The notes beneath the pieces were generated by a model that was not told where the DNA came from, did not search any database, and saw nothing but the letters and a program-made list of their open reading frames with translations. A stretch of DNA of 64,000 nucleotides from an uncultured Actinomycetota bacterium (GTDB lineage: Bacteria > Actinomycetota > Actinomycetes > JAHEKZ01): contig CAVQYR010000001.1 of NCBI GenBank assembly GCA_963718235.1, forward strand, positions 96,001 through 160,000, written 5' to 3'. Numbering within the stretch: the stretch's first letter is position 1; each line of letters opens with the position of its first letter. Shown piece after piece: positions 1 through 57,457 of this stretch. The translations under genes and the position numbers were made by a program.

Positions 1-215
1 AGATCGACCCGGGCGTGCCTGAAGCTCTGCGACGTGAGACCCAGGTCGACGCCGTTCATCAACGCCGTCCGCCGGACGTCGGCGTCGTCCACGCCTCCGC
101 TGTCGAGCCGACGGGCCATCAAGCGACCCACGGCCACAGCAGCCACCTGAACAGCAACGACGATCAGGACCCCACGCAGGACCCGCTGGGCTGGCCTCTT
201 CCCTGTTCTGCTCAT
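1..215 (-). CDS. Partial membrane-anchored protein, possibly LiaF-like (runs off the left edge)
   Basis: ATG at 215-213 preceded by TAGCCT + 7 nt (leaderless-type -10). Open frame MSRTGKRPAQRVLRGVLIVVAVQVAAVAVGRLMARRLDSGG...ALMNGVDLGLTSQSFRHARVD: one TM helix then a beta-rich pattern. Not in the ORF track. Confidence 0.45.
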   Translation of the reverse strand, partial: MSRTGKRPAQRVLRGVLIVVAVQVAAVAVGRLMARRLDSGGVDDADVRRTALMNGVDLGLTSQSFRHARVD

Positions 216-284
216 GGTCCCAGGCTAGACGCCGGCGGCGGGTTCCCCCAGGTCCCCCTCGCGCCGGGTTCCGGAGCTGTGCGG

Positions 285-1736
285 CTACAGGGTGCCGGCA
301 AACGTGCGCAGCATCGTTGCCTGAGGGTGCGTCAGCCAGCCAGCGCTGGCCAGGGCCCCGGTGACTGACTTGTACGCGGTGATCAGGGACCTCTTCTGGC
401 TGGGCGACTGCGTCGAGCTGGCCACACGAAGCAGTGCACAGGCGCGGGTAGTGAGCGCATCAGCCGTAGTTCGCTGCGCCTGGTCGTCGGTCCGGTACTT
501 GGTCGAGTTCCGGACGAGTCGTTTCGTCAGGCTGCACATGCTCGGGGCAGTCGCCGAGACCACGAAACTCGCCGTGGTCCTCGCACTGTTGCCGGCCTTG
601 TCGACGGCCGTGGCCGAGACCGTCCGTGAGCCGAGGCCGAACGAGTAGGCGGGACGTGTGATGTTGGCGCAGGTCGACGTGACCAGGCCCGACAACGAGT
701 CCTCGGCTGCACATGTCATGACGACTCGCTGATCGACGGTGTAGCTGCCGACGTTTCCTGCGTACACCACGCTGGGAGGTGTCCTGTCGATGCTGATGCC
801 GGACACCACCGTCGACGCCGAGTTGCCGGCGACGTCGACGCAGGAGCCGGAGGCCTCTTGGTCCGCGCCCTCGGAGGCCAACGTGACCGGAGCACTCACC
901 GTGGCGACGCCCGTTCCGCCGGGGTCATCCGTGCACGAGAAGTCGACCGTGACGTCTGTGCGGTTCCAACCGTAACCGTTCGCAAGCGGGTCTCGATGCG
1001 CGGTGATCGATGGCGAAGTGATGTCAGAGGAGGCAACGGTGACGGTGAGGACGTGGGAAGTGGCGTCGAAGGTGAACGCTACGGTCGCGCCGTCGACCGG
1101 GACCACGAACGGGATGTTTGCGCCTCCCACAGCACCACCGGCTCCATAGCTCACCGCCCAGTCCTCGTCGACGGCCGCCTTTGTCTCGTAGCTCCCGGCC
1201 GGGAGCGTGGCCGTCTCGAAGGCGTAGATGCCGTCGCCGTCTGGGTCCTGCAGCCAGGACCGCAGGCAGTCCGGCTGCCAGTCACCCGGGCAGCCCAGCT
1301 CGGACTGGAAGTCGCCTGGTGCGACCACGATGAGTGAGCTCTCGTTGTCGGTGACCCAGTGCGTCTTGTGGTCGTAGTAGAACTTGACGCTGCCTGCGTC
1401 AGTGGAGAGCGGGATACTCATCCCACCTGGGGAGGCGTTCAGCCCGTAGTTCTCGTCCCACGCGTCGTTGAGGGCCGCCTTGTAGCTGTAGACGCCACTG
1501 GGAACGGAGAACGTCCGTTGCCATACGTCGTCGATCGCGTCATACGCCAGGTGCGTGGCCGCACAACCGGGATCCCAGTCCCCGGCGCAGCCGACTTCGG
1601 ACTGGAGGTCGCCGGCGATCGTCACGCTGCCCGGGCTCGGTGTACTCGCGGCGGCCGGTGGCGTGATGACGACGGCCAGCACCGCCAAGGTGACCACGGC
1701 GGCATGAGCCGTCCGTCGCGCGTTCACAGCAACCAT
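285..1736 (-). CDS. Secreted protein with two pullulanase-type X25-like carbohydrate-binding modules, Ig-like repeats and a C-terminal helical domain; no catalytic domain seen
   Basis: Signal peptide (PPAAA). Two repeats, AGDLQSEVGCAGDWDPGC...YKAALNDAWDENYG and PGDFQSELGCPGDWQPDC...TKAAVDEDWAVSYG. Ig-like D(V/K)AGN strands. Confidence 0.75.
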   Translation of the reverse strand: MVAVNARRTAHAAVVTLAVLAVVITPPAAASTPSPGSVTIAGDLQSEVGCAGDWDPGCAATHLAYDAIDDVWQRTFSVPSGVYSYKAALNDAWDENYGLNASPGGMSIPLSTDAGSVKFYYDHKTHWVTDNESSLIVVAPGDFQSELGCPGDWQPDCLRSWLQDPDGDGIYAFETATLPAGSYETKAAVDEDWAVSYGAGGAVGGANIPFVVPVDGATVAFTFDATSHVLTVTVASSDITSPSITAHRDPLANGYGWNRTDVTVDFSCTDDPGGTGVATVSAPVTLASEGADQEASGSCVDVAGNSASTVVSGISIDRTPPSVVYAGNVGSYTVDQRVVMTCAAEDSLSGLVTSTCANITRPAYSFGLGSRTVSATAVDKAGNSARTTASFVVSATAPSMCSLTKRLVRNSTKYRTDDQAQRTTADALTTRACALLRVASSTQSPSQKRSLITAYKSVTGALASAGWLTHPQATMLRTFAGTL

Positions 1737-34251: not shown

Positions 34252-34331
34252 GAAGGTCTCCCTGGTCGAGGGGCTGGATCGTTCGGCGGGAAGGCGCCAC
34301 CAGTCTACTGACGCCTGGCACGATGCCGAGC

Positions 34332-34802: not shown

Positions 34803-34862
34803 TCTTGGACTTGATGTGCAGGCTCGACGGCTGTGGACCCCATCTTCTGCATGATCAACTTG
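34795..34862. repeat. 68-bp palindromic dispersed repeat, copy 2
   Basis: CAAGTTGATCTTG...CATGATCAACTTG terminal inverted repeat (12/13 pairs). Confidence 0.85.
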
Positions 34863-34885
34863 GAGGAGGTGCCGGGGGGACGGGA

Positions 34886-35863: not shown

Positions 35864-35891
35864 GGACCCAAAGTACCGCCCGGGCAAGGGC

Positions 35892-38637: not shown

Positions 38638-38668
38638 CGTGGCATTCTCCCCTATCGCCAGGCGGCCG

Positions 38669-40084
38669 TCAGGTGCGGGCGAGAACCTCGCGAGCTGCGT
38701 GCCACCCACCCATGCCGTGCACACCGCCTCCCGGTGGGGTCGAGGACGAGCACAAGTACAGGCCGGGAACCGGGGTCACCCACGGCGACCGGGTCAGCAC
38801 CGGCCGAGCGATGAACTGCCGCCAGTCGGACGCGCCCCCGGCGATGTCCCCTCCGACCTCGTTGGCGTTGTGCGCCTCCAGGGCCGCGGTGTCCATGGTG
38901 TGGCGGGCCAGGATCCGGTCGCGGAAGCCAGGCGCGAACCGCTCGATCTGCGCCTCGATCCGGTCGGTCATGTCGACTCTCGAACCGTGCGGCACATGGC
39001 AGTACGCCCAGCCGGTGTGCTTGCCCTCGGGCGCCCGCGTCGGGTCCGCCCCCGTCGCCTGGACGAACAGCACGAACGGCCGTTCCGCATGCTTGCCCGC
39101 TGCCGCCAGCCGCTCGCTGGAGGCCACCTCGGCGGCCGTCCCGCAGACGTGGACGGTGCCAGCATCAGCCAGCCGCGAGTCGGTCCAGGGCACGGGGGCG
39201 TCGAGCGCCCAGTCGACCTTGAACACCCCGGGGCCGTAGCGGAAGCCGGCCAGCCGGTCGCGGTAGCGCGTCGGAAGAACGTCACCGGCGACGTCGACGA
39301 CCTGCCTGGGGGTCAGGTCCAAGACGATGCTGGACGACGGCGGCAGCTCACTCAGGGAGGCGACGCGACGGTCGGTCTCGATCTCACCGCCCAGGGAACG
39401 AAGTCTCGCGACGAGCGCATCGGCGATGCTCTGGGAGCCGCCGACAGCGACCGGCCAGCCGACCACGTGCGCCAGGGCGCCGAGAAGCAACCCGAACCCA
39501 GCCGTGGTGAGCGAGGTGAGCGACAGCATCGAGTGCGCGGCGAGGCCCGAGAACAGCGCGCGCGCCGGCGGCTCGCGAAACGCCACCTTGTCGACCCAAC
39601 CCGACGGCCAGGCACCCACCGCACCGTAGGCGGCAAGAGCCAGTGGAGCCTTGGGTGGGAACTCCAGCGGTGAGAGCAGCCCGTCGACCAGCGGTTCGCC
39701 GAGCCCGGCCACACCCCCGACGATGCGTCGCCACGCGGCGCCGTCGCGGCCAAGACCGGCTGCGGTCTCGGCTACATCGCGCCACAGGAGTGCGGTGGTC
39801 TGCTGGTCGACCGGGTGTCCGAGCGGAACACCCGGCTGGGCGAAGGCCAGGCCCTCGCGGGACAGGTCGAGCGTGCGAAACGCCGGAGAGGCCATAGCCA
39901 ACGGGTGCACCGAGGAACAGACGTCGTGGCGAAAGCCGGGGAGGGTCAGCTCCTCGGTACGGACCCCACCGCCGACCTGCGAGGCGGCCTCGAGCACCAG
40001 CACCCTCTGACCGGCCTCGGCCAGCCGGACGGCGGCCACCAGCCCGTTGGGACCGGAGCCGACCACGATGGTGTCCGGGTTCAT
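38669..40084 (-). CDS. Phytoene-desaturase-like FAD-dependent oxidoreductase
   Basis: VGSGPNGL, HDVCSSVHP, FKVDWAL, STPPGGGVHGMGG. Confidence 0.88.
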   Translation of the reverse strand: MNPDTIVVGSGPNGLVAAVRLAEAGQRVLVLEAASQVGGGVRTEELTLPGFRHDVCSSVHPLAMASPAFRTLDLSREGLAFAQPGVPLGHPVDQQTTALLWRDVAETAAGLGRDGAAWRRIVGGVAGLGEPLVDGLLSPLEFPPKAPLALAAYGAVGAWPSGWVDKVAFREPPARALFSGLAAHSMLSLTSLTTAGFGLLLGALAHVVGWPVAVGGSQSIADALVARLRSLGGEIETDRRVASLSELPPSSSIVLDLTPRQVVDVAGDVLPTRYRDRLAGFRYGPGVFKVDWALDAPVPWTDSRLADAGTVHVCGTAAEVASSERLAAAGKHAERPFVLFVQATGADPTRAPEGKHTGWAYCHVPHGSRVDMTDRIEAQIERFAPGFRDRILARHTMDTAALEAHNANEVGGDIAGGASDWRQFIARPVLTRSPWVTPVPGLYLCSSSTPPGGGVHGMGGWHAAREVLART

Positions 40085-40133: not shown

Positions 40134-41306
40134 TCATCGGGCACGCAGCCACAAGGAGGTGTGCTCGGGCACCACCGTCGTCTCGACCACCTGCAGCAAG
40201 TCCTTGGTCACGACGTCGGGATCGACCTCGTCGCGCAGCCGGCTCGCGAACGCGTCCACGGTGTGCTCGGCGTCGTAGCGGGCCCGGTTGAACCGGTGGT
40301 CGACGGCGGACCGCACCCGCGAGAGCAGCGGCCGGAAGAGCGCCGCTGCGCACAGTGTGGCTGCGGCAACCGCCAGGGCACCGGACTCAGGCAGCAGCTG
40401 CGGAACAGTCCAGACGACAACCACGTAGACCAGCAGAAGAATCCCCGTCACGAGCACGTAGGAGGTCGTACGACTGATGATCCGGTCGATCTCGTAGAGG
40501 CGGAAGCGCAGGATCGCCACACCGACCGCCGCAGGAAGCAGCGACAGCGCCACCGCCCAGCCCAACGTCCCCAGCAACGTCGTGTCGGCCAACCAAGGAA
40601 GGGTAAGCAGAACGAGCATGATGGCCAGGAGGGCCACCGCAAAGGCCACCCAGCGGAACTGCACCTTCTCCACTCCGCGTGCGCGGCGGGCCCTGACTAC
40701 CACCGACGTAGCGGCAAGGACGGCAGTGACCGCAACTCCCAGCAGTGCGAGGTTCCGCAGCAGCCAGTCATCGGACGGACCGGCATCGGCCAGGAATCCC
40801 GGCGCGAGCGGGTTGGCGACCGTCATCGCTGGGGTCTGGAACTGCAGCACCGGCGACACGATCCCGCAGAGGGCGGCGAAGCCGGCGAAGACCACAGTCG
40901 CCACTCCCACCCATCGCCAGCGAACGGAAGCGAAGCCAGAGGGGAACACCAGAAGCGGCAAGGTCGTGCTCATCACGAGCAGCAGCGGCCAGATCCAGTT
41001 GGTCATCCAGGCCCCCGTCCAGCCCCACCACGACGTCAGGTTGCCGGTCTCCACCGCCCGCGCGACGGCGAAGTCAGCGAGCCCGAACAGTCCGAACAGA
41101 CCCCAGGAGCCCAGGAAGAGCCAGCCCTCGGCGTTCTCCGGACGGCGAGTCGTGAGCAGCCACCCAACCGTCGCGAACGTCAGGTACGGCAACAGGTAGA
41201 GGAGCTGAGCACTCCACGGCTTGGCCAGTCCGAGGGCCACACCGAGCAACCCCACCACGATCAACACCCACCGCAGCGCGGTCAGCCAACGTTCGCTCAG
41301 CTTCAC
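40134..41306 (-). CDS. Multi-TM sensor-like protein, array copy R8 (ends in an N-terminal GAF fragment)
   Basis: RRPENAEGW, FPSG..RWR, ILRFRLYEIDRIISRT, DHRFNRARYDA..RLRDEVD..TTVVPEHTSLWLRAR*; GTGA overlap with R7. Confidence 0.88.
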   Translation of the reverse strand: MKLSERWLTALRWVLIVVGLLGVALGLAKPWSAQLLYLLPYLTFATVGWLLTTRRPENAEGWLFLGSWGLFGLFGLADFAVARAVETGNLTSWWGWTGAWMTNWIWPLLLVMSTTLPLLVFPSGFASVRWRWVGVATVVFAGFAALCGIVSPVLQFQTPAMTVANPLAPGFLADAGPSDDWLLRNLALLGVAVTAVLAATSVVVRARRARGVEKVQFRWVAFAVALLAIMLVLLTLPWLADTTLLGTLGWAVALSLLPAAVGVAILRFRLYEIDRIISRTTSYVLVTGILLLVYVVVVWTVPQLLPESGALAVAAATLCAAALFRPLLSRVRSAVDHRFNRARYDAEHTVDAFASRLRDEVDPDVVTKDLLQVVETTVVPEHTSLWLRAR

Positions 41307-42487
41307 GAAGGTCCCCCCAACCACAGGTAGGTCCGGTTCGGCGCGACTGTCCGATCGACGACCTGCAGCAACTCCGTGGACACCCGCTCCGGATCGACTT
41401 CGTCGCGCAGCCGGTTGGCGAACGTCTCCACCGCCCGGTCGGCGTCATAGCGCGACCGGTTGAACCGATGATCGACGGCAGACCTGACCCGGGAGAGCAG
41501 TGGTCGGAACGCCGCGGCCGCTGCCAGGGTGGCAGCCGCCACTGCGAGTCCGTCGCTGGCCGCAGGCAGTGCCTGACTCACGGCGGCCACCACGACCACG
41601 TACACGACCACGACCAGACCGGTCACGACCGCGTAGGACGTCGTGCGGCTGATGATCCGGTCGATCTCGTACAGCCGGTACCGAAGGATCGCGATGCCGC
41701 ACGAGACCGGAACCAGGGTGACTACGACCGCGAACGCCACGTCGCCGAGCCGCGAGTCGCTGAACGCCGGGAACAACGCCTCCAGCACAAGCTCTGCGGG
41801 CAGCAGCGAGACGGCGAAGGCGAACCAGCGCATCTGCTGACGCTCGATGCCGACGGCACGTCGGCTCCTCACGAAGGCCGAGACCACCGCCGCGAGCCCG
41901 CACAACAGGAACACCAGTCCGACCAGAGCGAACGCCGTCGAGCTCTCGACGTCGCCCGCGTCGGCCATGAAGCCTGGCGACCACGGGTTGGCTACCGTTC
42001 GCTCGGGGGTGCAGTCACCAGAGGTGTCCCCGAGGCACAGGGTGGGCTGGAGGATCGACATCACCACCACGCCGACGGTCGAGGCAACGGCCAGCCACAG
42101 CACCGGACGCCAGCGTGGAGAAGGAAGTCCGGACGGGTACAGCAGCACGGTGAACGTTGTCATGAGAGCGAGCAGCGGGTACCAGTACCAGGAAGCGACG
42201 CCCGCGCCGGCGATCGCCCACCCGGACGGCGACGAGTCGTCAACGCCGGTCGACGCTGCCACCTCTGCCATGGAGCCGAGGCCCGTGAGGCCGCCCACGC
42301 CGAGGAACACCCAGCCGATCGGGTTCTCCGGGCGACGGGATGCCACCACAGCTCCGACCACCGTGTACGCGAGAACGGGCAGGAGGACCGCCTGGTTGTT
42401 GGCCTCCAGGCCGGAGGCGAGTCTGAGACCCGTGCCCACAGCGAAACTGGCGAGGAGCGTCCACCACAGGATCCGGTGACGGTTCAT
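41303..42487 (-). CDS. Multi-TM sensor-like protein, array copy R7
   Basis: RRPENPIGW, LRYRLYEIDRIISRT, RLRDEVDP..RTVAPNRTYLWL; ATGA overlap with R6. Confidence 0.88.
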   Translation of the reverse strand: MNRHRILWWTLLASFAVGTGLRLASGLEANNQAVLLPVLAYTVVGAVVASRRPENPIGWVFLGVGGLTGLGSMAEVAASTGVDDSSPSGWAIAGAGVASWYWYPLLALMTTFTVLLYPSGLPSPRWRPVLWLAVASTVGVVVMSILQPTLCLGDTSGDCTPERTVANPWSPGFMADAGDVESSTAFALVGLVFLLCGLAAVVSAFVRSRRAVGIERQQMRWFAFAVSLLPAELVLEALFPAFSDSRLGDVAFAVVVTLVPVSCGIAILRYRLYEIDRIISRTTSYAVVTGLVVVVYVVVVAAVSQALPAASDGLAVAAATLAAAAAFRPLLSRVRSAVDHRFNRSRYDADRAVETFANRLRDEVDPERVSTELLQVVDRTVAPNRTYLWLGGPS

Positions 42488-43620
42488 GACCCGTCCCCTG
42501 GAAGCCACAGCCCGAGAACTGAGGGAGCAACCGTACGACGGATGACAGCGTGGAGGTCGACGTACACCTGGTCGGAGTCGACCTCGTCGCGCAGCCGGAC
42601 CGCGAACTCCTCGACCGCCCGCTCGGCGTCGTAGCGCGACCGGTCGAACCTGCGGTCCACCACCGACCGCACCCGAGACAACAACGGACGGAACAGCGCA
42701 GCCGCCGCCAACGTCGCCGCCGCTACCGCAAGATCGTTGGCCTCCGGCAGCAGCTGAGGTACTGCCCAGACCACCGAGACGTACACCACCAGAAGCAGCC
42801 CGGTCACCAACGCGTACGACGTCGTCCGACTGATGATCCGGTCGATCTCGTACAGGCGGTACCTGAGGACAGCGAATCCGATGGCCAGCGGTACCAGCGC
42901 GTAGGCCCCGATCGTCAGGGCCTGCAGGCCAACGGTCAGGGGCGAGTCACCAAAGGCGAGTGAGGTGACAAGGGTCACCCCCCACGTCGACACGAAGACC
43001 GCACCAGCCCACGCGATCCAGCGGATCTGCACCCGCTCTGACGAGCCGGCATGGCGGTAGCGGACGAACACCGAGTAGGCGCTGACCCCGAAGGCGACCG
43101 GGAGAGTCAACAGCACCAGGGGCGCGACTCGGGTCAGCAGAACCGAGTACGTCGGGTTGTTCACCCCCGAGGCCAGCGTCGGCTCCGACCCGGCCACCAC
43201 GAGCGAGGCAACAGCGATCAGCGCGAGGCTGCCCCACGAGAACCACCGCCACCCAGGTGACGGCAACCGACCGTCGGGGAAACGCAGCAGCACCTGGGTG
43301 CCCATGATGCCGAGTGGGGGCACCCAGAACGGCCACCACAGCAACCACCCGACGAGGGCGCCTGTCTCGCCACGGTCGACGAGGAACTGCCCCAAGGCGT
43401 AGGGGACGGCGGGGATGGACCAGAGCATGGCCACGGACAGCAGGATCCAGCCCATGACGTTGTCGGGGCGCCGTAGCGCAAGTACGCCACCAACGGCGGT
43501 GAAGCTGCCGAGCACCGCAATCGAGAACAGGACGTCCGAAGGCCCCGTGGCAAGGAGCATTCCCAGGAGCATCACCGATCCGCCGATCGTGATCATCACC
43601 CAGACTGCGACTCGCCTCAT
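42484..43620 (-). CDS. Multi-TM sensor-like protein, array copy R6
   Basis: RRPDNVMGW, LRYRLYEIDRIISRT, RLRDEVDS..RTVAPSVLGLWL; ATGA overlap with R5. Confidence 0.88.
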   Translation of the reverse strand: MRRVAVWVMITIGGSVMLLGMLLATGPSDVLFSIAVLGSFTAVGGVLALRRPDNVMGWILLSVAMLWSIPAVPYALGQFLVDRGETGALVGWLLWWPFWVPPLGIMGTQVLLRFPDGRLPSPGWRWFSWGSLALIAVASLVVAGSEPTLASGVNNPTYSVLLTRVAPLVLLTLPVAFGVSAYSVFVRYRHAGSSERVQIRWIAWAGAVFVSTWGVTLVTSLAFGDSPLTVGLQALTIGAYALVPLAIGFAVLRYRLYEIDRIISRTTSYALVTGLLLVVYVSVVWAVPQLLPEANDLAVAAATLAAAALFRPLLSRVRSVVDRRFDRSRYDAERAVEEFAVRLRDEVDSDQVYVDLHAVIRRTVAPSVLGLWLPGDGS

Positions 43621-44771
43621 GGGGACCGCGCAATCAGTGAGACACCGGCCACCGTCGGCTGCACCGTGCGGTCGAGCAGAGACAGGAGGTCCTCGCTGAT
43701 CTCACCGCTGTCGACCTCGTCGCGCAGCCGGACCGCGAACTCCTCGACCGCCCGGTCGGCGTCGTAGCGCGACCGGTCGAACCGACGGTCCACCACCCCT
43801 TGCACCCGAGACAGCAACGGACGGAACAAGGCGGCCGCAGCCAACGTCGCTGCAGCCACGGCAAGGTCGTTAGCCTGCGGCAGCAGCTGAGGCACCGCCC
43901 AGACCACCGACACATAGACGACCAGGAGCAGCCCGGTCACCAACGCGTAGGACGTCGTCCGACTGAGGATCCGGTCGATGTCATACAGGTGGAACCGGGT
44001 GATAGCCACCCCTGCGGCGAGCGGAACCGCCGCGAGCGCCGTCCCGTAGAGAAGGTTGGAGACGGCAGCGAGGTCGGTGTACTCGGCGGTCAGGCCGCCA
44101 AGTACCCATCCGAGCACCAGCGCGGGAGCGGCTAGGATCATCCACTTCAGCTGCTGGCGCACCACCCCCTCCGAGCGGCGGAACCTGGCGACGAAGGCAG
44201 CGAGCGCGGTGAGCCCGGCCGCGAGGAGGAACAGCAGGATCGGGCTCTCGCCAGAGCCAGTGGTCAGTCCAAGTGCGGCCACGCCGATGGGGTTTCTCAC
44301 CACGAGTCCCTCGTTCCCGGCCTGGACCTCCGACGCCAGGGCGATCCGACTCGTTGCGGCAACCAGGCCGACCACGACCAGGAACAGCGCCGGTCGCCAT
44401 CCGGGTGACGGCGCACGCCCGGTGGGGAAGATCATCAAGATGACGATGGGGAGCCCGATCGCGGGCACGAAGTACCAGTCGGAGTACCACGACATCAGAC
44501 CCAGCCACGGAGTGGTGGGATCGACGATCTGCTCGGCGTGGTCGCTGATCACCGTGCCTGACGTCCAAAGCAGTCCAACCGCCGAGAACAACCAGCCCAT
44601 GACGTTGCCGGGGCGACGCAGGACCAAGAAGGCACCGACGAGGTACCACGGAGTCACACTGACGAACACGATGTCGGTTCCCGCACCGTTCAGGATGACG
44701 AGCAGGGTCATCGCGAGTCCGAAGACAGCGATGGCTGCACCGCCGACACGCCCGACGAGCCTCGACGTCAT
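43617..44771 (-). CDS. Multi-TM sensor-like protein, array copy R5
   Basis: RRPGNVMGW, TRFHLYDIDRILSRT, RLRDEVDS..RTVQPTVAGVSL; ATGA overlap with R4. Confidence 0.88.
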   Translation of the reverse strand: MTSRLVGRVGGAAIAVFGLAMTLLVILNGAGTDIVFVSVTPWYLVGAFLVLRRPGNVMGWLFSAVGLLWTSGTVISDHAEQIVDPTTPWLGLMSWYSDWYFVPAIGLPIVILMIFPTGRAPSPGWRPALFLVVVGLVAATSRIALASEVQAGNEGLVVRNPIGVAALGLTTGSGESPILLFLLAAGLTALAAFVARFRRSEGVVRQQLKWMILAAPALVLGWVLGGLTAEYTDLAAVSNLLYGTALAAVPLAAGVAITRFHLYDIDRILSRTTSYALVTGLLLVVYVSVVWAVPQLLPQANDLAVAAATLAAAALFRPLLSRVQGVVDRRFDRSRYDADRAVEEFAVRLRDEVDSGEISEDLLSLLDRTVQPTVAGVSLIARSP

Positions 44772-45970
44772 GATCTGCCCCCTCCGGCCAGCCACAGCCC
44801 GGAGCGGGCAGGCTGAACCGTCCGGTGCAACACGTCGAGCAGGTCGTCGCTCACCTCGCTGGGGTCCACCTCGTGAAGCAGCCGGGCTGCGAACCCCTCG
44901 ACCGCCCGGCTGGCGTCGAACTGCTCGCGGTTGAACCGACGGTTGACCAGCCGCTGCGCCCAACCCAGGACGGGTCGGAACACGGTAGCCGCGGCCAGGG
45001 TCGCTGCTGCAACCTGCAAGGCGTTGGACCTCGGCAGCGGGATCGACACCGCGTACACGACCGCGAGGTACACCGCGACAAGGGCCACGGTCACCAGCAG
45101 GTACGCAGTGGTGCGACCGATGATCCGGTCGATGTCGTACAGGTGGTACCGCAGGATCGCCACACCGCAGGAGATGGGGATCAGCAACATGATCAGGATG
45201 AACGTGAAGTCACCCAGAACCGAGTCGACCCACCCGGTGACGAGACCCCCCAGCATGATGTGCAGGGGAACCAGGAGGATCACGAAGGCGAACAGCCGCA
45301 TCTGCAGGCGCTCCACACCGGTGGACCGCCACGTGCGCAGCACGACTGACCAGACCCCCGCAAGTCCGCAGAAGAGCAACAGCAGAACGCCCGCAGGCGC
45401 GGCCCACGACTGGGAGGCGGCTATCGCATCGGATACGACGGGTGGTGAAAGCGGGTTGGCCACGGTCCACGCGTTCGGGTCCTCACCCGGAAGCCCGATG
45501 TCGAGCGTGGGATAGAGCGCGACCAGGACCGTCGCCCCCACCGTGGCGCCGGCAGACAGCCGCAGTACCCACCGCCACCGGTTCGAGGCAACCCCCGTCG
45601 GGTAGAGCAGGAAGGTGAACGTGGTCGCCAGCATCAGGAGTGGGAGCCAGGCCCAGCTGTAGATCCAGGCGCTTGCCACCCCCCACCAGGGCGCAGGGGG
45701 ACCGGCCTCCAGAACCCTCTCCAGGACAGCGCCTGTGGCACCCACAAGCGCGAGCAGCGCCGCGATCTGCATGAAGACCCAGCCGATCGCATTCTCCGGA
45801 CGTCGCCGGGTCACGACCGCCCCGACCGCGGCGTACACGAGGACAGTGACCGGCTCCAGGACGTCGTCGGCGGTGTACTGCTGGTGGGCGAACAGGCTGA
45901 CGGCGCACCCGAGGATCGCCACGAGCACCATCGGCCACCAGCTCAGGCGCAGAGCAGATTGGCGCCTCAT
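44768..45970 (-). CDS. Multi-TM sensor-like protein, array copy R4
   Basis: RRPENAIGW, LRYHLYDIDRIIGRT, HEVDP..RTVQPARSGLWL; ATGA overlap with R3. Confidence 0.88.
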   Translation of the reverse strand: MRRQSALRLSWWPMVLVAILGCAVSLFAHQQYTADDVLEPVTVLVYAAVGAVVTRRRPENAIGWVFMQIAALLALVGATGAVLERVLEAGPPAPWWGVASAWIYSWAWLPLLMLATTFTFLLYPTGVASNRWRWVLRLSAGATVGATVLVALYPTLDIGLPGEDPNAWTVANPLSPPVVSDAIAASQSWAAPAGVLLLLFCGLAGVWSVVLRTWRSTGVERLQMRLFAFVILLVPLHIMLGGLVTGWVDSVLGDFTFILIMLLIPISCGVAILRYHLYDIDRIIGRTTAYLLVTVALVAVYLAVVYAVSIPLPRSNALQVAAATLAAATVFRPVLGWAQRLVNRRFNREQFDASRAVEGFAARLLHEVDPSEVSDDLLDVLHRTVQPARSGLWLAGGGRS

Positions 45971-47166
45971 CGCTTCGGCTCGTTCAGCCAGAGGCCAGCC
46001 GCCGAGGGTTGGACCGTTCGAGCCAGCACGCCCAGCAGGTCACTGGACACGGCACTCGAGTCGACCTCGTCGCGCAGTCGGGACGCGAACTGCTCCAGCG
46101 CGACCTCGGCGTCGAAGCGTTCCCGGTTGAACCGGCGGTCCACCACCCGTCGGGCCCAGTGCAGCACCGGGCGGAAGGCTGCGGCCGCGACCAGGGTCGC
46201 GACCGCCACCTGCAGGGCGTTGGACCGCGGCAGCGGGATCGACACCGCAGCGACCACGAGGAGGTACAGGCCGACCAAGGCACCGGAGACCAGCAGGTAC
46301 GCGGTGGTGCGCCCGATGATCCGATCGATGTCATAGAGGTGATAGCGAAGAACCGCGACGCCGCAGGCGACCGGAATGCACGTCAGTGCAATCGTGAAAG
46401 TGAGGTTGCCGAGCTGGGAGTTGCCGAAACCGGAGAACGTCTCCGAGACCAGGATCTGTAGCGGAACCAGCACGATCGCCGCCGCGAAGAGCCGCATCTG
46501 CAGTCGCTCCACGCCCCGCGCTCGCCAGGTGCGCCAGACCACGGATCCAACAGCGGCGACACCACAGAGCAGCCCCACGAGAACCGGGGCGAGAAACCAG
46601 CCCGACTCGTTGTCCCCATCGCTTATGCCGGCGAGGAACCACGAAGACAGCGGGTTGGCGATCGTGATGGGCGTCTCGGAGTCCGTGATCCATTGCAGGT
46701 CGAGCGTGGGGTCCAGCATTCCGAACAGGGTGGCTGTCACCGTTCCTGCGACCGAGAGCCACAGCACGGGACGCCAACGCGGTGAGGGAAGCCCGTTCGG
46801 GAACAGCAAGAAGGTGAAGGTGGTGGAGAGCATGAACAGCGGGTACCAGAACCAGTTGCCATACCAGGCTGCCAGCACGCCCCACCACGGAACCGGTGGT
46901 CCGGCCTCCAGCACCGCCTGGGTCCCCACATCGCTGAGACCAGTGAGACTGGCCAGCAGACCGACGAGCAGGAACAGCCATCCGATGGGGTTCGTGGGGC
47001 GTTGCCTCGCGACTACGGCTCCGACCAGCGCGTAGCCAAGAAAGGCCACCATCACGAGGTCGTCGACCTGGTAGTCCCGGATGAACGGCAGGCTCACCAC
47101 CAGACTCCCGACCGTCGCGACCACGAGAGCCCACCACCAGCCGCGCTGGACGCTTCGGGTGCTCAT
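45967..47166 (-). CDS. Multi-TM sensor-like protein, array copy R3
   Basis: RQRPTNPIGW, LRYHLYDIDRIIGRT, RLRDEVDS..RTVQPSAAGLWL; ATGA overlap with R2. Confidence 0.88.
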   Translation of the reverse strand: MSTRSVQRGWWWALVVATVGSLVVSLPFIRDYQVDDLVMVAFLGYALVGAVVARQRPTNPIGWLFLLVGLLASLTGLSDVGTQAVLEAGPPVPWWGVLAAWYGNWFWYPLFMLSTTFTFLLFPNGLPSPRWRPVLWLSVAGTVTATLFGMLDPTLDLQWITDSETPITIANPLSSWFLAGISDGDNESGWFLAPVLVGLLCGVAAVGSVVWRTWRARGVERLQMRLFAAAIVLVPLQILVSETFSGFGNSQLGNLTFTIALTCIPVACGVAVLRYHLYDIDRIIGRTTAYLLVSGALVGLYLLVVAAVSIPLPRSNALQVAVATLVAAAAFRPVLHWARRVVDRRFNRERFDAEVALEQFASRLRDEVDSSAVSSDLLGVLARTVQPSAAGLWLNEPKR

Positions 47167-48344
47167 GACCGGCTCTCCCGGAGCCACAGGCCCGCCACCG
47201 CGGGCTGGACGGTGCGATCGAGCACGGTGAGCAGGTCACCGCGGATCTCGTCACTGTCGACCTCGTCCCTGAGCCGACCGGCGAACCTCTCCACCGAACG
47301 CTCCGCGTCGTACTGCTCGCGGTTGAACCGACGGTTCACCAGGCGCTGCGCCCAGCCCAGCACCGGCCGGAACAGCGCCGCCGCCGCCAACGTCGCCGCT
47401 GCAACGGCCAGGTCGTTGGACTGCGGGAGCAGCTGGGTCACCGCGGTCACCACCACGGCGTAGACGGCGAGCAGCACCCCTGAGACCAACCCGTACGCAG
47501 TGGTCCGGCCGATGACCCGATCGATGTCGTACAGGTTGTGCCGCAAGATGGCGACCGCGCAGGCGAGCGGGACACACAGGAACGCCGCGGCGAGAACGAC
47601 GTACCGCAGCGTCGAGTACCCATGCTCGGCGAGCCACTGCGCCGGCACGATCGAGAGGATGAGCATCAGGATCGCGAAAGCGAACAGGCGCATCTGCAAC
47701 CGCTCCACGCCCTTCGAGCGCCAAGCACGCTGCAAGGACGAGAAGGCCGACAGCAGCATCAGGACGAAGAGCAGACCCACCCAGAACAGGAAGGAGTTGT
47801 CCAACCCGGCGAAGGTAGGGGATACACCCAGCGGGTTCTGCACGTCGAAAGCGTTCGCACTCCCCTCCTCACCTATCGGGAGTGTTGGGCTCAACGCCGA
47901 GAAGAGCGGACTCAGTGCAATGAGCCCAGCCCCCAGGTACAGCACTGGCCGCCAGCGTGGGGAAGAGAGCCCCGACGGGTAGAGGAGGAACGTGAAGGCG
48001 GTCGAGAGAATGATCAGCGGAAAGGCGACCCCGGCAAGGACCCAGGCCGCGAGATACCCCCACCACTGGAGGGGCGGGCCCTCGACCAGGGCGGCCTGCT
48101 CGCCCACTCGCGCGAGCGCCGTCAGACTCGCGGCCAGCCCTACCCAGAGGAAGAGCCAGCCGATCGGGTTGTCCGGCCGGCGGCGGGCGATCACGGCTCC
48201 GACGGGGGCGTAGGCGATCCACACCGCGAACAGCAGGTCCTCCCCGAAGTAGCCCCGCTTCAGGACCAGCGTGAGCACGACACTCGCACCGATCAGGGTG
48301 ACGAACACCCACCAGCAGGCCGTCTGGAGCTCTCGAAGACTCAC
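47163..48344 (-). CDS. Multi-TM sensor-like protein, array copy R2
   Basis: RRPDNPIGW, LRHNLYDIDRVIGRT, RLRDEVDS..RTVQPAVAGLWL; GTGA overlap with R1. Confidence 0.88.
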   Translation of the reverse strand: MSLRELQTACWWVFVTLIGASVVLTLVLKRGYFGEDLLFAVWIAYAPVGAVIARRRPDNPIGWLFLWVGLAASLTALARVGEQAALVEGPPLQWWGYLAAWVLAGVAFPLIILSTAFTFLLYPSGLSSPRWRPVLYLGAGLIALSPLFSALSPTLPIGEEGSANAFDVQNPLGVSPTFAGLDNSFLFWVGLLFVLMLLSAFSSLQRAWRSKGVERLQMRLFAFAILMLILSIVPAQWLAEHGYSTLRYVVLAAAFLCVPLACAVAILRHNLYDIDRVIGRTTAYGLVSGVLLAVYAVVVTAVTQLLPQSNDLAVAAATLAAAALFRPVLGWAQRLVNRRFNREQYDAERSVERFAGRLRDEVDSDEIRGDLLTVLDRTVQPAVAGLWLRESRS

Positions 48345-49474
48345 GGGGCCGGCTCCCGGAGCCACAGACCGGCCGACGCGGGCTGCACGGTGCGGGTCAG
48401 CGCACTCAGGAGCTCCCCCGACACCAGGCTGGGGTCGACCTCGTGCCGCAGTCGCCCGGCGAACTCGTCGACGGTCACCAACGCGTCGTACCGCTCACGG
48501 TTGAACCGTCGGTCGACCACGCGCTGCACGCGCCGCAGGACCGGCCGGAACAGCGCCGCCACCGCCAGCGTCGACGCTGCGACGGCGAGGTCGGAGGACT
48601 CCGGGAGCAGGCTCGAGGCGGCGGCCACCAGCACGGCGTAGACGGCCAGCAGCCCGACGGTCACCAGGCCGTAGGAGATGGTCCGGCTGACCACCCGGTC
48701 GAACTCGTACAGCCGGTAGCGGGTCACCGCGACGCCTATGGCCACCGGCACGGCGTTCAGACCGATCGCAGTCGCTATCGCGTAGACAAGCTCCGGCACG
48801 TCCAAGGCGTTGAACAGCGTGCTGGTGACCAGCAGCGCCACGATCGCAACGCCGACCGCAAGGGCGAACCACCGGTACTGCAGCCGCTCGCTGCCGCGGC
48901 TGCGGCGCCACCGCGCCACCAGGCTCGTCAGGGCGCCCAGCATCAGCAGCGGGACGATCACGAAGCCCTGGTCGTTGAACCACCCGACGACCCCACTCAA
49001 CGCAGGAACGCCGAGTGGGTTGGGCTGTTGGCTGATCTGCAGCGGGAGGGGGTCCACGAGCCCGGCGACGACGACACAGCCGGCTGCGACCGCGGTGGCC
49101 CCGATCAGCAGTCGGGTTCCTGGTGTCTCGGCCCTTCCGGTCGGGAAGAGCACGACGGTCGCGATCAGGGTGACGTAGCCGAGGCGACCCGCCAGCACCA
49201 CCACCAGCTCGAGCCAGACCGACATCTCGCCGACCAGCCCGTACCCCACGAGCAGGATCGCCCAGCACGCCCCGGTGGCCATGAGCAGCCAGCCGATCGC
49301 ATGACCCGGACGCTGCCAGAGGATCAGCGCGCCCACCAACGGGAACCCGATCCAGCTCAGCCCCCACGCGACCCAGAAGGCGTTGCTCGCTGCTGCCCCG
49401 ACCAACAGCCCGATGACAATCGACGCCGTGACGACGGCGAGCGCCGAGCGGCGCAGGACCTCTCGTGTCGGCAC
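48341..49474 (-). CDS. Multi-TM sensor-like protein, array copy R1 (first transcribed; start inferred)
   Basis: QRPGHAIGW, TRYRLYEFDRVVSRT, RLRHEVDP..RTVQPASAGLWL; GTG start 11 nt after the upstream stop. Confidence 0.85.
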   Translation of the reverse strand: MPTREVLRRSALAVVTASIVIGLLVGAAASNAFWVAWGLSWIGFPLVGALILWQRPGHAIGWLLMATGACWAILLVGYGLVGEMSVWLELVVVLAGRLGYVTLIATVVLFPTGRAETPGTRLLIGATAVAAGCVVVAGLVDPLPLQISQQPNPLGVPALSGVVGWFNDQGFVIVPLLMLGALTSLVARWRRSRGSERLQYRWFALAVGVAIVALLVTSTLFNALDVPELVYAIATAIGLNAVPVAIGVAVTRYRLYEFDRVVSRTISYGLVTVGLLAVYAVLVAAASSLLPESSDLAVAASTLAVAALFRPVLRRVQRVVDRRFNRERYDALVTVDEFAGRLRHEVDPSLVSGELLSALTRTVQPASAGLWLREPAP

Positions 49475-49485
49475 GGGGGAGCGAA

Positions 49486-50253
49486 CTACCGAGCAGCCCG
49501 ATGAGGTCGCAGCATCCGCAGGGGAGCGGTGAGGATGTGCAGCCCCGAGCGGATCCCGGAGTTGTGCCAGATGTTGCGCCAGTTCGACCACAGCCGCTTG
49601 TGGTCGACGCAGACCGTCTCCTCGGCGACCTCGACGTCCGGGATGCCGTAGTGCGCCGCGAGGTTGTGCAACGTGCCCATCCAGAAGACGTCTTCCTTGC
49701 GCTTGGCCACCGGCCAGGCCATCTCCCACAGCGGGTCGTTGGGACGGATCAGGATCTTGATCTCGACCCGGGTGCGTTCGTCACGCTCCTCGGCAGAGAA
49801 CGTGATCATGCCCGCGAACATGTGGCCCTCAGGGGTCATGAAGGTGAACGACTCGTCGTCGGCGTAGAGGACCAGGATCCCCGTAGCCAGCTTGGGGCCA
49901 TGACTTGCTATGCCGACTTCGATGGGCGCGACGTCGCCCGGTTCGATTCCGGTGAGCGTGTTGTGGAACACACTGCCCGGCGGCCAGTAGTCGCCGAAGT
50001 TGACCTTCCAGTCACTCACGAGTGCACGCGCGCCCACGACATTCCCGAGATCGGCCGAGTAGGTGCGCTGCCACAGGCGACCGAACCCCTGCTGGGGACC
50101 TGTCACCTTCTTGCCCGTGATGTTGTAGCCGACCGAAGCCTTCTCGTCCGGTGCGGCCAACCGGTCGACCTTGGTCGCCCAGTTGCCGGCGTCGCGCGGG
50201 ACGACGGGTTCGCTGCTGGGGGCTGGAGTGGTCATGTCGGTCTCCTCGCTCAC
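49486..50253 (-). CDS. Soluble hypothetical protein, possibly DUF1990/SRPBCC-like
   Basis: GPQQGFGRLWQRTY, VLYADDESFTFMTPEGHMFAGMITFS and a C-terminal helix FWMGTLHNLA; GTGA overlap with the STAS gene. The fold is inferred. Confidence 0.7.
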   Translation of the reverse strand: MSEETDMTTPAPSSEPVVPRDAGNWATKVDRLAAPDEKASVGYNITGKKVTGPQQGFGRLWQRTYSADLGNVVGARALVSDWKVNFGDYWPPGSVFHNTLTGIEPGDVAPIEVGIASHGPKLATGILVLYADDESFTFMTPEGHMFAGMITFSAEERDERTRVEIKILIRPNDPLWEMAWPVAKRKEDVFWMGTLHNLAAHYGIPDVEVAEETVCVDHKRLWSNWRNIWHNSGIRSGLHILTAPLRMLRPHRAAR

Positions 50254-50600
50254 GCCGATGCCAAGGCTGCAGCGGCATCAGGATGAAGGGCGATCGCCTC
50301 ATCGAGGCGGGTCAGCTCGAAGATCTGCCGGTAGTGGTCGGTGAGCCCGACAGCGGCCAGCTTCTGCTGCTGCCGGTTGGCCCGTACGAGCAGCGTGACG
50401 AGCATGCCGATGCCACCACTGTTCATGTAGGTCAGGCCGGTGAAGTCCAGCACGATGAACCTCGTGCCGGGGGCGCATGCCTCCTCGTAGGCCGACATCA
50501 GCACCGGCTCACAGGCTGCGGTGACATCGCCCGCAATCTCGATGACTGCCGTCCCGTCGACCGGGTGGTGGACCGTCATGGTTACGTCCGGATCAGGCAT
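50250..50600 (-). CDS. STAS-domain anti-sigma-factor antagonist
   Basis: IEIAGDV, IVLDFTGLTYMNSGGIG, YRQIFELTRLD. Confidence 0.92.
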   Translation of the reverse strand: MPDPDVTMTVHHPVDGTAVIEIAGDVTAACEPVLMSAYEEACAPGTRFIVLDFTGLTYMNSGGIGMLVTLLVRANRQQQKLAAVGLTDHYRQIFELTRLDEAIALHPDAAAALASA

Positions 50601-50618
50601 GGTGTTCCCTTTCGCCGA

Positions 50619-50969
50619 TCATGCGGTCGCGGAGCCGACAGCGGCGTCCACGTCGGAGAAAACCTGGATGAAGTCCGACAGTCGGGTGATGTCGAAGACG
50701 TGTCGGTAGTGCTCGGTGAGACCGGCGGCATGCACCGCGCGACGGTCGGCGCGGGCTCGCCCCAGCAGACTCACGATCAGGGCGATTCCGGTTGAGTTGA
50801 TGTAGTCGACGGCGTTGAAGTCGAGGACGACCGTGGTCGGATCGCTCGCGACGGCAGCGTCATAGGAGCTCGCCAGAGCGGTTGCGGCTTCACGGTCGAC
50901 CTGTCCGGTCAACACGATCACGACCGTCGACGATGCTGGGTAGGCCGCTACCTCGTAGCCGGTGATCAT
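50619..50969 (-). CDS. STAS-domain anti-sigma-factor antagonist
   Basis: LTGQVD, VVLDFNAVDYINSTGIA, YRHVFDITRL; ATGA overlap with the phosphatase gene. Confidence 0.92.
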   Translation of the reverse strand: MITGYEVAAYPASSTVVIVLTGQVDREAATALASSYDAAVASDPTTVVLDFNAVDYINSTGIALIVSLLGRARADRRAVHAAGLTEHYRHVFDITRLSDFIQVFSDVDAAVGSATA

Positions 50970-52750
50970 GACGTGCCTCCGTCTGTCTGTGCGGGATCGA
51001 CCTCAGTGGGATCGACCTGAGTGGGATCGACGTTCAGGACGAGCCGGACGGTGTGTCGCTCGTCCTTGGTGTGCTCCTCGAGCACGTCGACCATGTTCTC
51101 GATCAGGAACAGCCCCCACCCGCGCGGCGTCTGCAGGCCGGCCAGCTTCAGCTCGAGGTCGGGCAGGTCGGCGACGGCGTCCTCGCGCCGCCCCCCGAGG
51201 TCACTGATCTCGACCGCGACGCCGGTCTGGGTGCGCATCACGGCAACATCGACCGGCAGCTCGGGACGGTTGTGGTTGCCGTGCTCGATCGCATTCATCG
51301 CCGCCTCGGCCGAGGCCGTCTTGATCCGCTCCAGGGCGTCTGCGTCGAGTCCGCACCCGGCCACCGCCTCTGCGACCTGGGCCAGCACCTGACGCTCGTT
51401 GCCGGGCTCGCTGGGGACCGAGAACGTCGCCAGGATCTCCTCACCCGGGGGTGCCTTGGGCCGGGCTGCGGAGCTTCGCTCCAAGGTGACGATCGTGACG
51501 TCGTCCTCTTGCTCGTTCTTGCCGGAGAACTGCTCCAGCGCGGTCACACACGCGTCGACGAGCTGCGAGCCGCTCGTGGCCGACGCAACCAGGTCGCGCG
51601 TGCGATGGAAGCCGAACATCTCGCCCTCGTCGTCGTGCTGCTCGGTGATGCCGTCGCTGTAGAGGAGCAGCACCTCACCCGGGTCGATCACGTCCTCCAG
51701 CTCGTCATAGCGGCTCTCGGGCATCAGCCCGAGCGGCATGCCGGTGGCTCGCAGCTCACGGACCTCACCGGAGCCGCGCAGGAAGGGAAGGTTGTGACCG
51801 GCGTTGGCGAACACGACGGCGCCGGTCTCGAGGTCGACGACGAGCACGAGGCAGGTGACGAACATGTGGGCCGGGATGTCGGTGCACAGCAGCTCGTTCA
51901 CCCGCTCGAGCACGGCAGCCGGCGAGACCAGCCGTGGCCCCGCCTCACGGAGCAGGGCGTGGGTGCTCGCCATCACCAGTGCGGCGGGGACTCCCTTGTC
52001 GGTGACATCGCCGGTGACCACCATGATCCGGCCGTCGGGAAGCTCCATCACGTCGTAGAAGTCGCCACCGACCGTCCGGGCGGGCAGGTAGAAGGCGGAC
52101 AGGTCCCACCCGGCCAGGTTGGGCAGCGAGCTGGGCAGGAACTGCTGCTGGATCAGCTGAGCGACCTTGAGCTCCTGCTCGATCCGCTCCCTGCTGCGCG
52201 CCTCGGCCTCCTGCTGGCGGACCAGCTGACCCAGGCGCAGCGCTGGGGCGGCGTACCGGGCCAGGGTGTCGAGCAGCCGCCGGTCGTCGTGGGAGTAGCC
52301 GCGTTCGGACAGTCGCGCACCCAGCGCCAGCAGCCCGACCATCTCACCCGATGCCACGAGCGGGACCACGAGCTCGACGCCGGCCTCGCGCATCTCGATG
52401 ACTGCGGGTGAGTCTGCGGGAAGGGTGTCGACGTCGACCGGCCCGGTGGCACCCTGCAGGAAGGCGAGCACGGGGTCGTTGGGTGCGATGTCGAGCTCGA
52501 CCCGGGAGGTGCCCGAGGGTGCAGGGTCGCCTTGCGAGCCGCCCTCGGGCGGGCGCCCCTTGCGACGCCACGACCGTCGCGAGCCGGCAGACCCCCGTAC
52601 CGCCGGCTCACTCGTCGTCGGGGCGACCGCACGGTCCGGCCCAGACGCTGGTTCGGTCGCAGCGGGGGCTTCGAGCTCGATCGGACGGACCACAACGCCT
52701 CCCGGTGCTGCAGGCCCCGGAGTGTCCGGGGGCTTTCTGGGATCCAGCAT
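50966..52750 (-). CDS. Soluble partial-GAF + SpoIIE/PP2C phosphatase + RsbW-like HATPase kinase
   Basis: VPLVASGEMVGLLALG..YSHDDRRLLDTLA (GAF C-part); ELKVAQLIQQQFLP, VGGDFYD, GDVTDKG, NAGH, YSDGITE, EDDVT (PP2C); EAAMNAIEHGN, ISDLG, RGWGLFLI (HATPase_c_2). No TM helix. Confidence 0.93.
   Translation of the reverse strand: MLDPRKPPDTPGPAAPGGVVVRPIELEAPAATEPASGPDRAVAPTTSEPAVRGSAGSRRSWRRKGRPPEGGSQGDPAPSGTSRVELDIAPNDPVLAFLQGATGPVDVDTLPADSPAVIEMREAGVELVVPLVASGEMVGLLALGARLSERGYSHDDRRLLDTLARYAAPALRLGQLVRQQEAEARSRERIEQELKVAQLIQQQFLPSSLPNLAGWDLSAFYLPARTVGGDFYDVMELPDGRIMVVTGDVTDKGVPAALVMASTHALLREAGPRLVSPAAVLERVNELLCTDIPAHMFVTCLVLVVDLETGAVVFANAGHNLPFLRGSGEVRELRATGMPLGLMPESRYDELEDVIDPGEVLLLYSDGITEQHDDEGEMFGFHRTRDLVASATSGSQLVDACVTALEQFSGKNEQEDDVTIVTLERSSAARPKAPPGEEILATFSVPSEPGNERQVLAQVAEAVAGCGLDADALERIKTASAEAAMNAIEHGNHNRPELPVDVAVMRTQTGVAVEISDLGGRREDAVADLPDLELKLAGLQTPRGWGLFLIENMVDVLEEHTKDERHTVRLVLNVDPTQVDPTEVDPAQTDGGTS
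50993..51031 (-). repeat. 15-bp tandem repeat (x~2.6) encoding VDPTQ-VDPTE-VDPAQ at the phosphatase C-terminus
   Basis: GGGATCGACCTCAGT GGGATCGACCTGAGT GGGATCGAC on the plus strand. Confidence 0.7.
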
Positions 52751-57415: not shown

Positions 57416-57457
57416 GGTGGCGAGGCTACCGATCCGGACGCCGGGTCTGCAGCGACC

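Follow-up and report, generated by a model that had tools for sequence, protein, structure and literature searches.

In the 64,000-nucleotide stretch of contig CAVQYR010000001.1 analysed here (the window), from an uncultured Actinomycetota bacterium, the minus strand from position 52750 to 40134 is occupied by a single tight 12-gene operon that encodes a partner-switching system, the sensor GAF domain of which has been split by gene fission in its strand 1–strand 2 loop. A soluble phosphatase/kinase with an incomplete GAF domain (hereafter the enzyme) forms the output half. The input half, which has been amplified, consists of polytopic proteins of ~390 amino acids (aa) that end in a juxtamembrane helix, GAF helix 1, strand 1 and a stop codon (hereafter the receptors). 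Enzyme and receptors are functionally linked, and a pair of STAS proteins and a DUF1990-like protein accompany them in a conserved manner. Fused homologues and structural models, described below, suggest that the tail of a receptor probably completes the half domain of the enzyme in trans.

Read 5′ to 3′ from the listing of open reading frames (ORFs), the gene order is the PP2C/kinase enzyme, STAS, STAS, the DUF1990-like protein, and then the eight polytopic membrane paralogues. Adjoining genes overlap by 4–25 nucleotides (nt) or are separated by a gap of 18 nt, when the longest ORFs are used. An earlier note on this DNA, made from the sequence alone, had recognized an operon with the enzyme first and eight receptors behind it, which is the arrangement found, but overlooked the two STAS genes and the DUF1990-like gene that lie between them.

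The enzyme lacks the first helix and strand of its GAF domain

Pfam matches place the parts of the enzyme in the order read in the earlier note, i.e., a half-GAF string (at aa 85–171), PP2C, and an RsbW-like kinase. The Pfam GAF models cover aa 118–171 only, which correspond to profile positions 80–135 of ~135, the C-terminal third of the domain (30.1 bits for GAF_2, PF13185; 29.9 bits for GAF_3, PF13492), and the match to GAF (PF01590) scores 22.0 bits against a cut-off of 22.4. No full-length GAF profile match lies within the polypeptide.

Residues 1–237 of the enzyme, folded alone by AlphaFold2 (AF2) with a 51-row alignment, are disordered to residue 80 and then form helices 93–100 and 115–122, strands 125–133 and 136–144, and helix 154–204; GAF helix 1 and strand 1 have no counterpart in the model. 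Compared with solved GAF chains, it covers them only from residue ~44–50 onward (Z 5–6.4). Whether this region folds as a complete GAF domain by itself had been proposed as a check, and structure comparison finds no such fold (best Z 6.4).

The leader, described previously as ~85 disordered residues, is indeed without secondary structure over aa 1–80 (AF2 predicted local distance difference test score, pLDDT, ~50). It varies in length and sequence across 51 homologues, and conservation starts at GAF strand 2, just before an APNDP motif; a variable Arg-rich leader precedes this point in all 51 aligned members. We considered the leader as a source of the missing helix and strand and rejected it, as it is disordered in the model and unconserved among the 51 homologues. 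Within it lies a basic patch, an Arg cluster that is conserved, with R63 nearly invariant in the 51 homologues, and the fused homologues have a short basic linker there. The patch may be in contact with the membrane or with the receptor.

The GDVxDKG, SDG, and EDD motifs of the PP2C domain, which we take to be metal ligands, are invariant in the 51 aligned homologues. The kinase domain scores 74.1 bits against PF13581 (cut-off 27.4); because its matches to the NCBIfam RsbW and SpoIIAB equivalogs and to anti-sigma factor kinases fall far below their cut-offs, it is, as judged by these profiles, an orthologue of neither RsbW nor SpoIIAB. A crude hydropathy scan confines the hydropathy peaks to the globular GAF and PP2C parts, in keeping with a protein that, as noted earlier, has no transmembrane (TM) segment.

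Fused homologues place both pieces in one GAF fold

Among longer proteins, a receptor query finds 69 relatives, most of which are multi-TM/GAF/HisKA_3 kinases. Three of them, P0012, P0021, and P0023 (1067 aa), carry GAF, SpoIIE, and HATPase_c_2 domains in a single chain. In P0012 (1067 aa), the receptor-tail motif is followed by a linker of ~30 residues and a near-copy of the enzyme N-region. The Pfam GAF profiles match P0012 at aa 508/514–646, beginning upstream of the LWL strand (532–534) and covering both pieces, over profile positions 6–130 and 2–132. In an alignment of the fused region, the eight window tails (39–47% identity) fall on the first 68 residues of the P0012 region and the window enzyme (57% identity) on residues ~87–217.

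The AF2 model of this fused region (mean pLDDT 87.5) comprises a long juxtamembrane helix, a helix (39–54), a strand (58–63), a low-confidence loop (64–88), the rest of the domain, and a long exit helix. It matches 3eea_B with Z 11.9 (root-mean-square deviation 3.5; 138 of 151 aligned; model 32..186 on chain 9..162) and DosS GAF-A (2y79_B) with Z 11.6 (125 aligned), the DosS/DosT/DevS GAFs scoring Z 11.3–11.6. Because the matches to solved GAFs begin at model residue 32–38, the helix and strand of the tail belong to the GAF fold, and the fold is complete when the tail part and the enzyme part share a chain. The same solved chains register the difference from the enzyme modelled alone: 3eea_B is covered at 50..162 by the enzyme model (Z 5.1) versus 9..162 by the fused model, 3o5y_A at 44..149 versus 8..149, and 1mc0 at 272..400 versus 232..400. 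In these models, the enzyme is without the first ~40 GAF residues, and the receptors end in exactly that piece; the split point is the strand 1–strand 2 loop, which is of low confidence in the fused model.

Fused ORFs in three genomes (G095, G220, and the unpublished G283) also match both profiles, with linkers of 12–27 residues. Split and fused versions coexist; fusions in several lineages are classical evidence of a functional link. Two propositions of the earlier note are thereby established: single-chain sensors hold both patterns in series (the three proteins above and the ORFs of the three genomes), and the receptor tail is GAF-derived, since the GAF profiles start before LWL in P0012 and the model matches include the tail.

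The fused proteins show some variation. P0012 is extended at the N-terminus by a part that weakly resembles cupredoxins (aa 82–157, E 0.0014, below cut-off), perhaps a sign of a periplasmic metal or redox input in this lineage. In G095 and G220, the fused ORFs match the receptor profile only from position ~100. Tandem fusions of two receptor units, with one tail per unit, occur as P0001 (809 aa), P0002 (775 aa), L064 6861–9305 (+), and L043 6943–9282 (+).

Eight receptors end at the same point

The eight receptors are 35–40% identical to the first sequence, and their alignment has 57 invariant columns, 43 of which lie in the last ~135 residues. All eight terminate 4–7 residues past the LWL strand. 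The common end point described in the earlier note is thus found in every copy, and the ~10 TM segments given there become 7–10 per receptor in the crude hydropathy scan; the tail motif that it quoted is identical to the consensus of the eight-paralogue alignment, with one copy reading VSL for LWL. Conservation is distributed unevenly: pairwise identity is 31% for the TM body but reaches 67% over the last two TM helices and 58% over the tail. The best-conserved tail motif, RRFxR..YDA, is the juxtamembrane helix, upstream of the GAF part. From the positive-inside pattern of conserved Arg-rich loops in the alignment, we read the tail as cytoplasmic. The true starts of receptors 1 and 5 are probably later than those of their longest ORFs. 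Over 287 nt that take in the last TM helices and the beginning of the tail, receptors 5 and 6 are 88.9% identical in DNA sequence. Elsewhere the two genes are far less alike, which points to gene conversion or to a partial duplication of the coupling module in the recent past.

Pfam and NCBIfam give no family match for the eight window receptors, and the receptor tails alone give no match to GAF profiles. Database names for receptor homologues are all 'hypothetical protein', as are those of the atlas clusters. HisKA_7TM (PF16927) matches none of the eight and only one of 61 aligned members of the receptor family (E 6.7e-5); precomputed matches exist on a few receptor homologues, and one atlas cluster scores 0.83. 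The relation to HisKA_7TM is, on these profile scores, at best distant and a weak lead.

Enzyme and receptors occur together

A scan of species-representative genomes yields 574 candidate enzyme loci, and the locus counts given here cover the best 80, within the available flanks (10 kb). These 80 span the Actinomycetes, Thermoleophilia, and Acidimicrobiia and, within the Chloroflexota, several classes. The half-GAF enzyme family has 2,447 matches among 7,499 candidates. The receptor family has 18,539 cluster representatives at E ≤ 0.001, fused sensors included, and 2,771 at E ≤ 1e-30. Among the best 150 representatives, 137 are 365–443 aa long and 146 reach the end of the profile, all 146 of them stopping within 32 residues (median 5). 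By this sequence count, intact output-less members ending at the same point number thousands.

At least one output-less receptor lies near the enzyme in 66 of the 80 loci (median 3, maximum 9, 223 in all), where output-less and fused forms are classed by open-frame length, a stop-to-stop proxy for gene structure that can overestimate in GC-rich DNA. (An E-value of 1e-40 was rejected as a proxy for output-less receptors, as fused sensors pass it too.) In 47 of these 66 loci, the receptors are upstream on the same strand, and in 14 they are downstream; 4 loci combine upstream receptors with others on the opposite strand, and 1 has receptors on that strand alone.

The same pairing is seen at the level of genomes. 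In the family to which the window belongs, the enzyme is present in 15 of 19 genomes and receptors in 18, mostly as adjacent arrays; one genome (G010, 89% complete) has neither. Among 301 genomes of the phylum, nine of them unpublished, the enzyme occurs in 50, and all 50 have receptor matches, counted from the best 150 of 371 matches together with 11 further enzyme-bearing genomes checked for short frames. Receptor matches without the enzyme occur in 41 genomes, all of which were examined, and 38 of these have only long (fused) or contig-edge frames. The association of enzyme and receptors is strong, and an independent distribution of the two families, by which the earlier note had proposed to judge the idea, is not what the linked loci and the enzyme-bearing genomes display.

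The window genome itself (3.17 Mb, 2 contigs) has ten output-less receptors, eight in the operon and two elsewhere, and a single copy of the enzyme in a whole-genome search. No fused receptor copy and no other half-GAF protein were found in searches of this genome; weak half-GAF matches to a GAF-GGDEF-EAL protein and a GAF-GAF-HisKA_3 kinase were rejected, both of which match the full GAF profile.

One family in the phylum sample has a receptor of half the usual size (profile ~180–389, about five TM helices and the tail), placed immediately upstream of the half-GAF enzyme (contigs G053:C13, G126:C196, G168:C213, G097:C1, G140:C89, G154:C11, and G067:C75).

These loci also bear on whether the split is an artefact, i.e., a frameshift of sequencing or assembly, or a gene pair that is expressed as a fused protein by read-through or frameshifting. 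Such a reading would find its ground in 28 of the 80 loci, in which the end of a same-strand receptor and the half-GAF are only 63–219 nt apart, receptor first, in the order seen in the fused proteins. We nevertheless hold it to be extremely improbable: eight separate copies cannot join one enzyme, the enzyme has a conserved leader of its own, and the split form recurs in independent assemblies, with the enzyme ORF fused in none of the 80 loci examined among the 574 candidates. For the window, read-through and frameshifting are rejected as the cause, since the enzyme gene comes first and three genes separate it from the receptors; the earlier note had argued from the same gene order, which is confirmed.

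STAS and DUF1990-like proteins complete a conserved core

The genes between the enzyme and the receptors (Table 1) recur with the enzyme. Of the 80 related loci, 79 contain a STAS gene, directly downstream of the enzyme gene in 78, and 76 contain a DUF1990-like gene; because of these frequencies, we regard the enzyme, the two STAS proteins, and the DUF1990-like protein as the conserved core module of the system. In the window, two STAS genes directly follow the enzyme gene, so that the presumed substrate of a partner switch is encoded beside its enzyme. A serine is kept in both window STAS proteins at the position of what we take to be the phospho-site motif.

Atlas clusters named DUF1990 score 0.97–0.98 for the 255-aa protein. 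A search for a solved relative gave chance-level antibody matches only (E 0.23 or worse). The DUF1990-like protein may serve the partner switch as its target or effector.

The operon is set within purine-nucleotide genes (window 31047–38724 and 56159–60914), including those for FGAM synthase, SAICAR synthetase, adenylosuccinate lyase, GAR synthetase, and adenylosuccinate synthetase. Divergent from it, at 52841–55603 (+), is a gene for a 920-aa BTAD/AAA_16/TPR regulator of SARP/AfsR-like architecture, the start of which is 90 nt from the enzyme gene. The GC content of the window is 66–74%.

Table 1. Features of the operon, with coordinates as positions in the window
Feature	Position	Strand	Basis and remarks
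Soluble enzyme, 594 aa: leader, incomplete GAF, coiled-coil linker, PP2C (SpoIIE), HATPase_c_2	50966..52750	-	Pfam, 51-homologue alignment, AF2
Leader, aa 1–83, low-complexity, Arg-rich	52502..52750	-	AF2 and alignment
Incomplete GAF, aa 84–175, strand 2 through last helix, without first helix and strand	52226..52501	-	Pfam, AF2 structure comparison
Helical linker from GAF to PP2C, aa 176–237	52040..52225	-	AF2; invariant or near-invariant among 51 homologues
PP2C/SpoIIE phosphatase domain, aa 238–425	51476..52039	-	PF07228, E 1.2e-49, profile 1–191 of 192
HATPase_c_2 (RsbW/SpoIIAB-like) kinase domain, aa 445–571	51038..51418	-	PF13581, E 1.3e-20
STAS protein 1, 116 aa, presumed substrate	50619..50969	-	PF01740, E 1.3e-13; 4-nt overlap with enzyme gene
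STAS protein 2, 116 aa, presumed substrate	50250..50600	-	PF01740, E 1.1e-13
DUF1990-like protein, 255 aa	49486..50253	-	PF09348, E 0.0016, below cut-off
Receptor 1, longest ORF 462 aa	48341..49729	-	Tail 48341–48580; eight-paralogue alignment, fused-region alignment
Receptor 2, 400 aa	47163..48365	-	Tail 47163–47402; profile query and complex-prediction partner
Receptor 3, 406 aa	45967..47187	-	Tail 45967–46206
Receptor 4, 400 aa	44768..45970	-	Tail 44768–45007
Receptor 5, longest ORF 448 aa	43617..44963	-	Tail 43617–43856; final strand VSL instead of LWL
Receptor 6, 378 aa	42484..43620	-	Tail 42484–42723
Receptor 7, 401 aa	41303..42508	-	Tail 41303–41542
Receptor 8, 396 aa	40134..41324	-	Tail 40134–40373

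Proposed completion of the GAF domain in trans

The earlier note had called for a complex prediction with each receptor tail. For one tail, aa 328–400 of receptor 2, predicted together with aa 78–200 of the enzyme, the score is 0.59 (runs of 0.59, 0.63, and 0.59, with at least 93% contact agreement and a partner pLDDT of at least 63), versus 0.01 for the best of three controls, which amounts to weak support. In the calibration, the counts of which hold only roughly here as alignments of our own were used, 58 of 80 solved complexes reach the mark, as do 2 of 110 mismatched pairs; only 7 of these 80 complexes reach it at 0.60 or under, and both passing mismatches do so. The prediction adds little beyond the prior expectation from the fused homologues.

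Several observations weigh against completion in trans. By the calibration, a pass of this kind is wrong in the majority of cases if the pairing was not likely from the start, and the halves of a split gene can pass by their likeness to solved single-chain GAF structures. Residues 84–204 of the enzyme alone reach an AF2 pLDDT of 85–98, and the truncated GAF may be stable without a receptor, merely a dimerisation module. No receptor is found in the flanks of 14 of the 80 loci; of five genomes with such a locus that were searched whole, four have output-less copies elsewhere and one (G043) has fused sensors only. Short-frame receptors occur without the enzyme in three genomes (G257, G188, and G118), and the two non-operon receptors of the window genome sit amid housekeeping genes, far from the enzyme. 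Related genomes are non-independent, and the co-occurrence counts overstate the support. Finally, no sigma factor was found among the scanned neighbours of the operon.

The confident prediction of the truncated GAF by itself, together with the weak complex prediction, would suit a functional partnership without GAF completion; a shared pathway would then account for the fusions and the linkage. In such a partnership, the half domain is a stable stub for dimerisation or ligand binding and the tail makes its contact elsewhere, by packing with the linker or the Arg-rich leader, or via the STAS or DUF1990 proteins. That the top-conserved tail motif lies in the juxtamembrane helix, upstream of the GAF part, fits such a partnership, as does the near-constant presence of the STAS and DUF1990-like genes. 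Set against it are the fused homologues, the model of which places helix and strand of the tail within a single GAF fold with 120–138 residues matching solved GAFs, the position of the split exactly in the low-confidence strand 1–strand 2 loop, and the fact that every receptor copy keeps the strand and stops right behind it. A GAF sheet without strand 1 would, moreover, expose a hydrophobic face. We consider a partnership of this kind possible, though rather unlikely.

Alternatively, the tails could be vestigial, the receptors being relics of sensor kinases or phosphatases that were truncated. They would now have a role independent of the enzyme: transport, scaffolding, or an association with full-length sensors, either in heterodimers or as decoys. 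The thousands of intact output-less members with a common end point make this improbable, as do the conservation of the tail and the last two TM helices above all other parts, the linkage in 66 of 80 loci with receptors in all 50 enzyme-bearing genomes, and the absence from the window genome of any fused sensor of the receptor family to pair with. The observations that speak for it are the short-frame copies in the three enzyme-less genomes, those of G188 and G118 within fused-sensor arrays, the two distant copies in the window genome, and the uniform database name of 'hypothetical protein'. The short-frame copies G188:C73:13907–15046 (-) and G118:C4:131417–132601 (-), which lie inside arrays of fused TM/GAF/kinase sensors, could be partners of the full-length sensors or recent truncations.

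For completion in trans, we propose the following sequence of events. The receptor tail would insert helix 1 and strand 1 into the incomplete GAF of the enzyme, which would complete the fold and tether the enzyme to the membrane. Docking would order the exit helix and the GAF-to-PP2C linker, and the phosphatase would dimerise, by analogy with the action of RsbT on RsbU. Dimerisation of the PP2C domains would shift the balance with the fused kinase and thereby alter how far the STAS proteins are phosphorylated. With TM bodies that diverge (31% identity) and a coupling module that is conserved (58–67%), the receptors would bring different membrane signals to one enzyme, an arrangement that reads as many inputs with one output. 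We lean, by a small degree, towards a split-domain architecture in which interchangeable membrane input halves, in arrays of up to nine or more, compete to complete one output half, with completion of the fold as the switch that recruits and activates the enzyme.

Relation to known systems

The closest relatives are the single-chain TM/GAF/PP2C/HATPase_c_2 sensors (P0012, P0021, and P0023, and those of G095, G220, and G283), which share the TM module, the tail motif, the C-terminal part of the GAF, the linker, PP2C, and the kinase. They differ in being one polypeptide, with a linker of 12–30 residues in place of the stop codon and separate gene found in the window, and in having one input per enzyme, whereas the window has an array. 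The multi-TM/GAF/HisKA_3 kinases (e.g., P0005 and the fused frames of families f41, f35, and f37) are homologous in the TM body, the juxtamembrane helix, and the GAF (E 1e-15 to 1e-32 to the window receptor), but have a continuous minimal GAF and a histidine kinase output; in our sample, they are found in genomes without the half-GAF phosphatase. HisKA_7TM (PF16927) is defined as the N-terminal part of complete kinases, unlike the output-less receptors of the window.

In the stressosome, several RsbR paralogues feed one RsbT/RsbU output. The stressosome has the same partner-switching logic of many paralogous sensors and one output; it is, however, a soluble megadalton complex of STAS proteins, without membrane receptors or a split domain.

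Vibrio SypE, paired with SypA, is a bifunctional kinase/phosphatase regulator of a STAS protein. Two others, Rv1364c of M. tuberculosis and OsaC of S. coelicolor, are named in the excerpted text of PMC12143880. Like the enzyme described here, all three combine PP2C and an RsbW-like kinase in one protein with a STAS substrate, but their input is a complete PAS, GAF, or receiver domain in cis, and none is described with a membrane protein that completes the input domain.

A published mechanistic parallel is RsbU. Its linkers are flexible until RsbT orders them into a coiled coil, and the resulting dimerisation activates the phosphatase; similar linkers are reported to join GAF, PAS, and receiver domains to PPM phosphatases (both PMC12143880). 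In either system, a separate partner would act on the N-terminal module of a phosphatase of the PPM/PP2C type, the catalytic domains would be brought to dimerise through a helical linker, and the substrates would be STAS proteins. They would differ in that RsbT binds a complete N-terminal domain in a ligand-like manner, while the partner in the window would supply missing elements, and in that the latter is an integral membrane protein with many paralogues.

The components of the system, PP2C, RsbW-like kinase, and STAS, are ordinary members of known families. In a search of open-access papers and bioRxiv, subscription journals not being covered, we found no account of a sensor domain divided between two genes, or of arrays of membrane proteins each bearing only the missing N-terminal piece of a GAF domain, and no paper that joins DUF1990 to STAS; within that literature, the split sensor domain and the receptor arrays are undescribed features.

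Significance

Sensor domains are normally treated as indivisible units that stand in cis with their outputs. If our interpretation is correct, the split would show that many-to-one wiring can be had without multi-domain receptors, by a fold that is complete only on docking and for which there are many alternative donors of the missing piece, and new inputs could evolve by duplication of a small input gene. It would give a testable role to a receptor family that has no Pfam or NCBIfam model and is now annotated as hypothetical, and a role to the conserved DUF1990-like protein as well. The system is present in Microbacterium and Kribbella, genera that are harmless and culturable, and is thus directly testable; it also offers a natural template for fragment-complementation switches. 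With 574 candidate loci, the design would be widespread in Actinomycetota and Chloroflexota.

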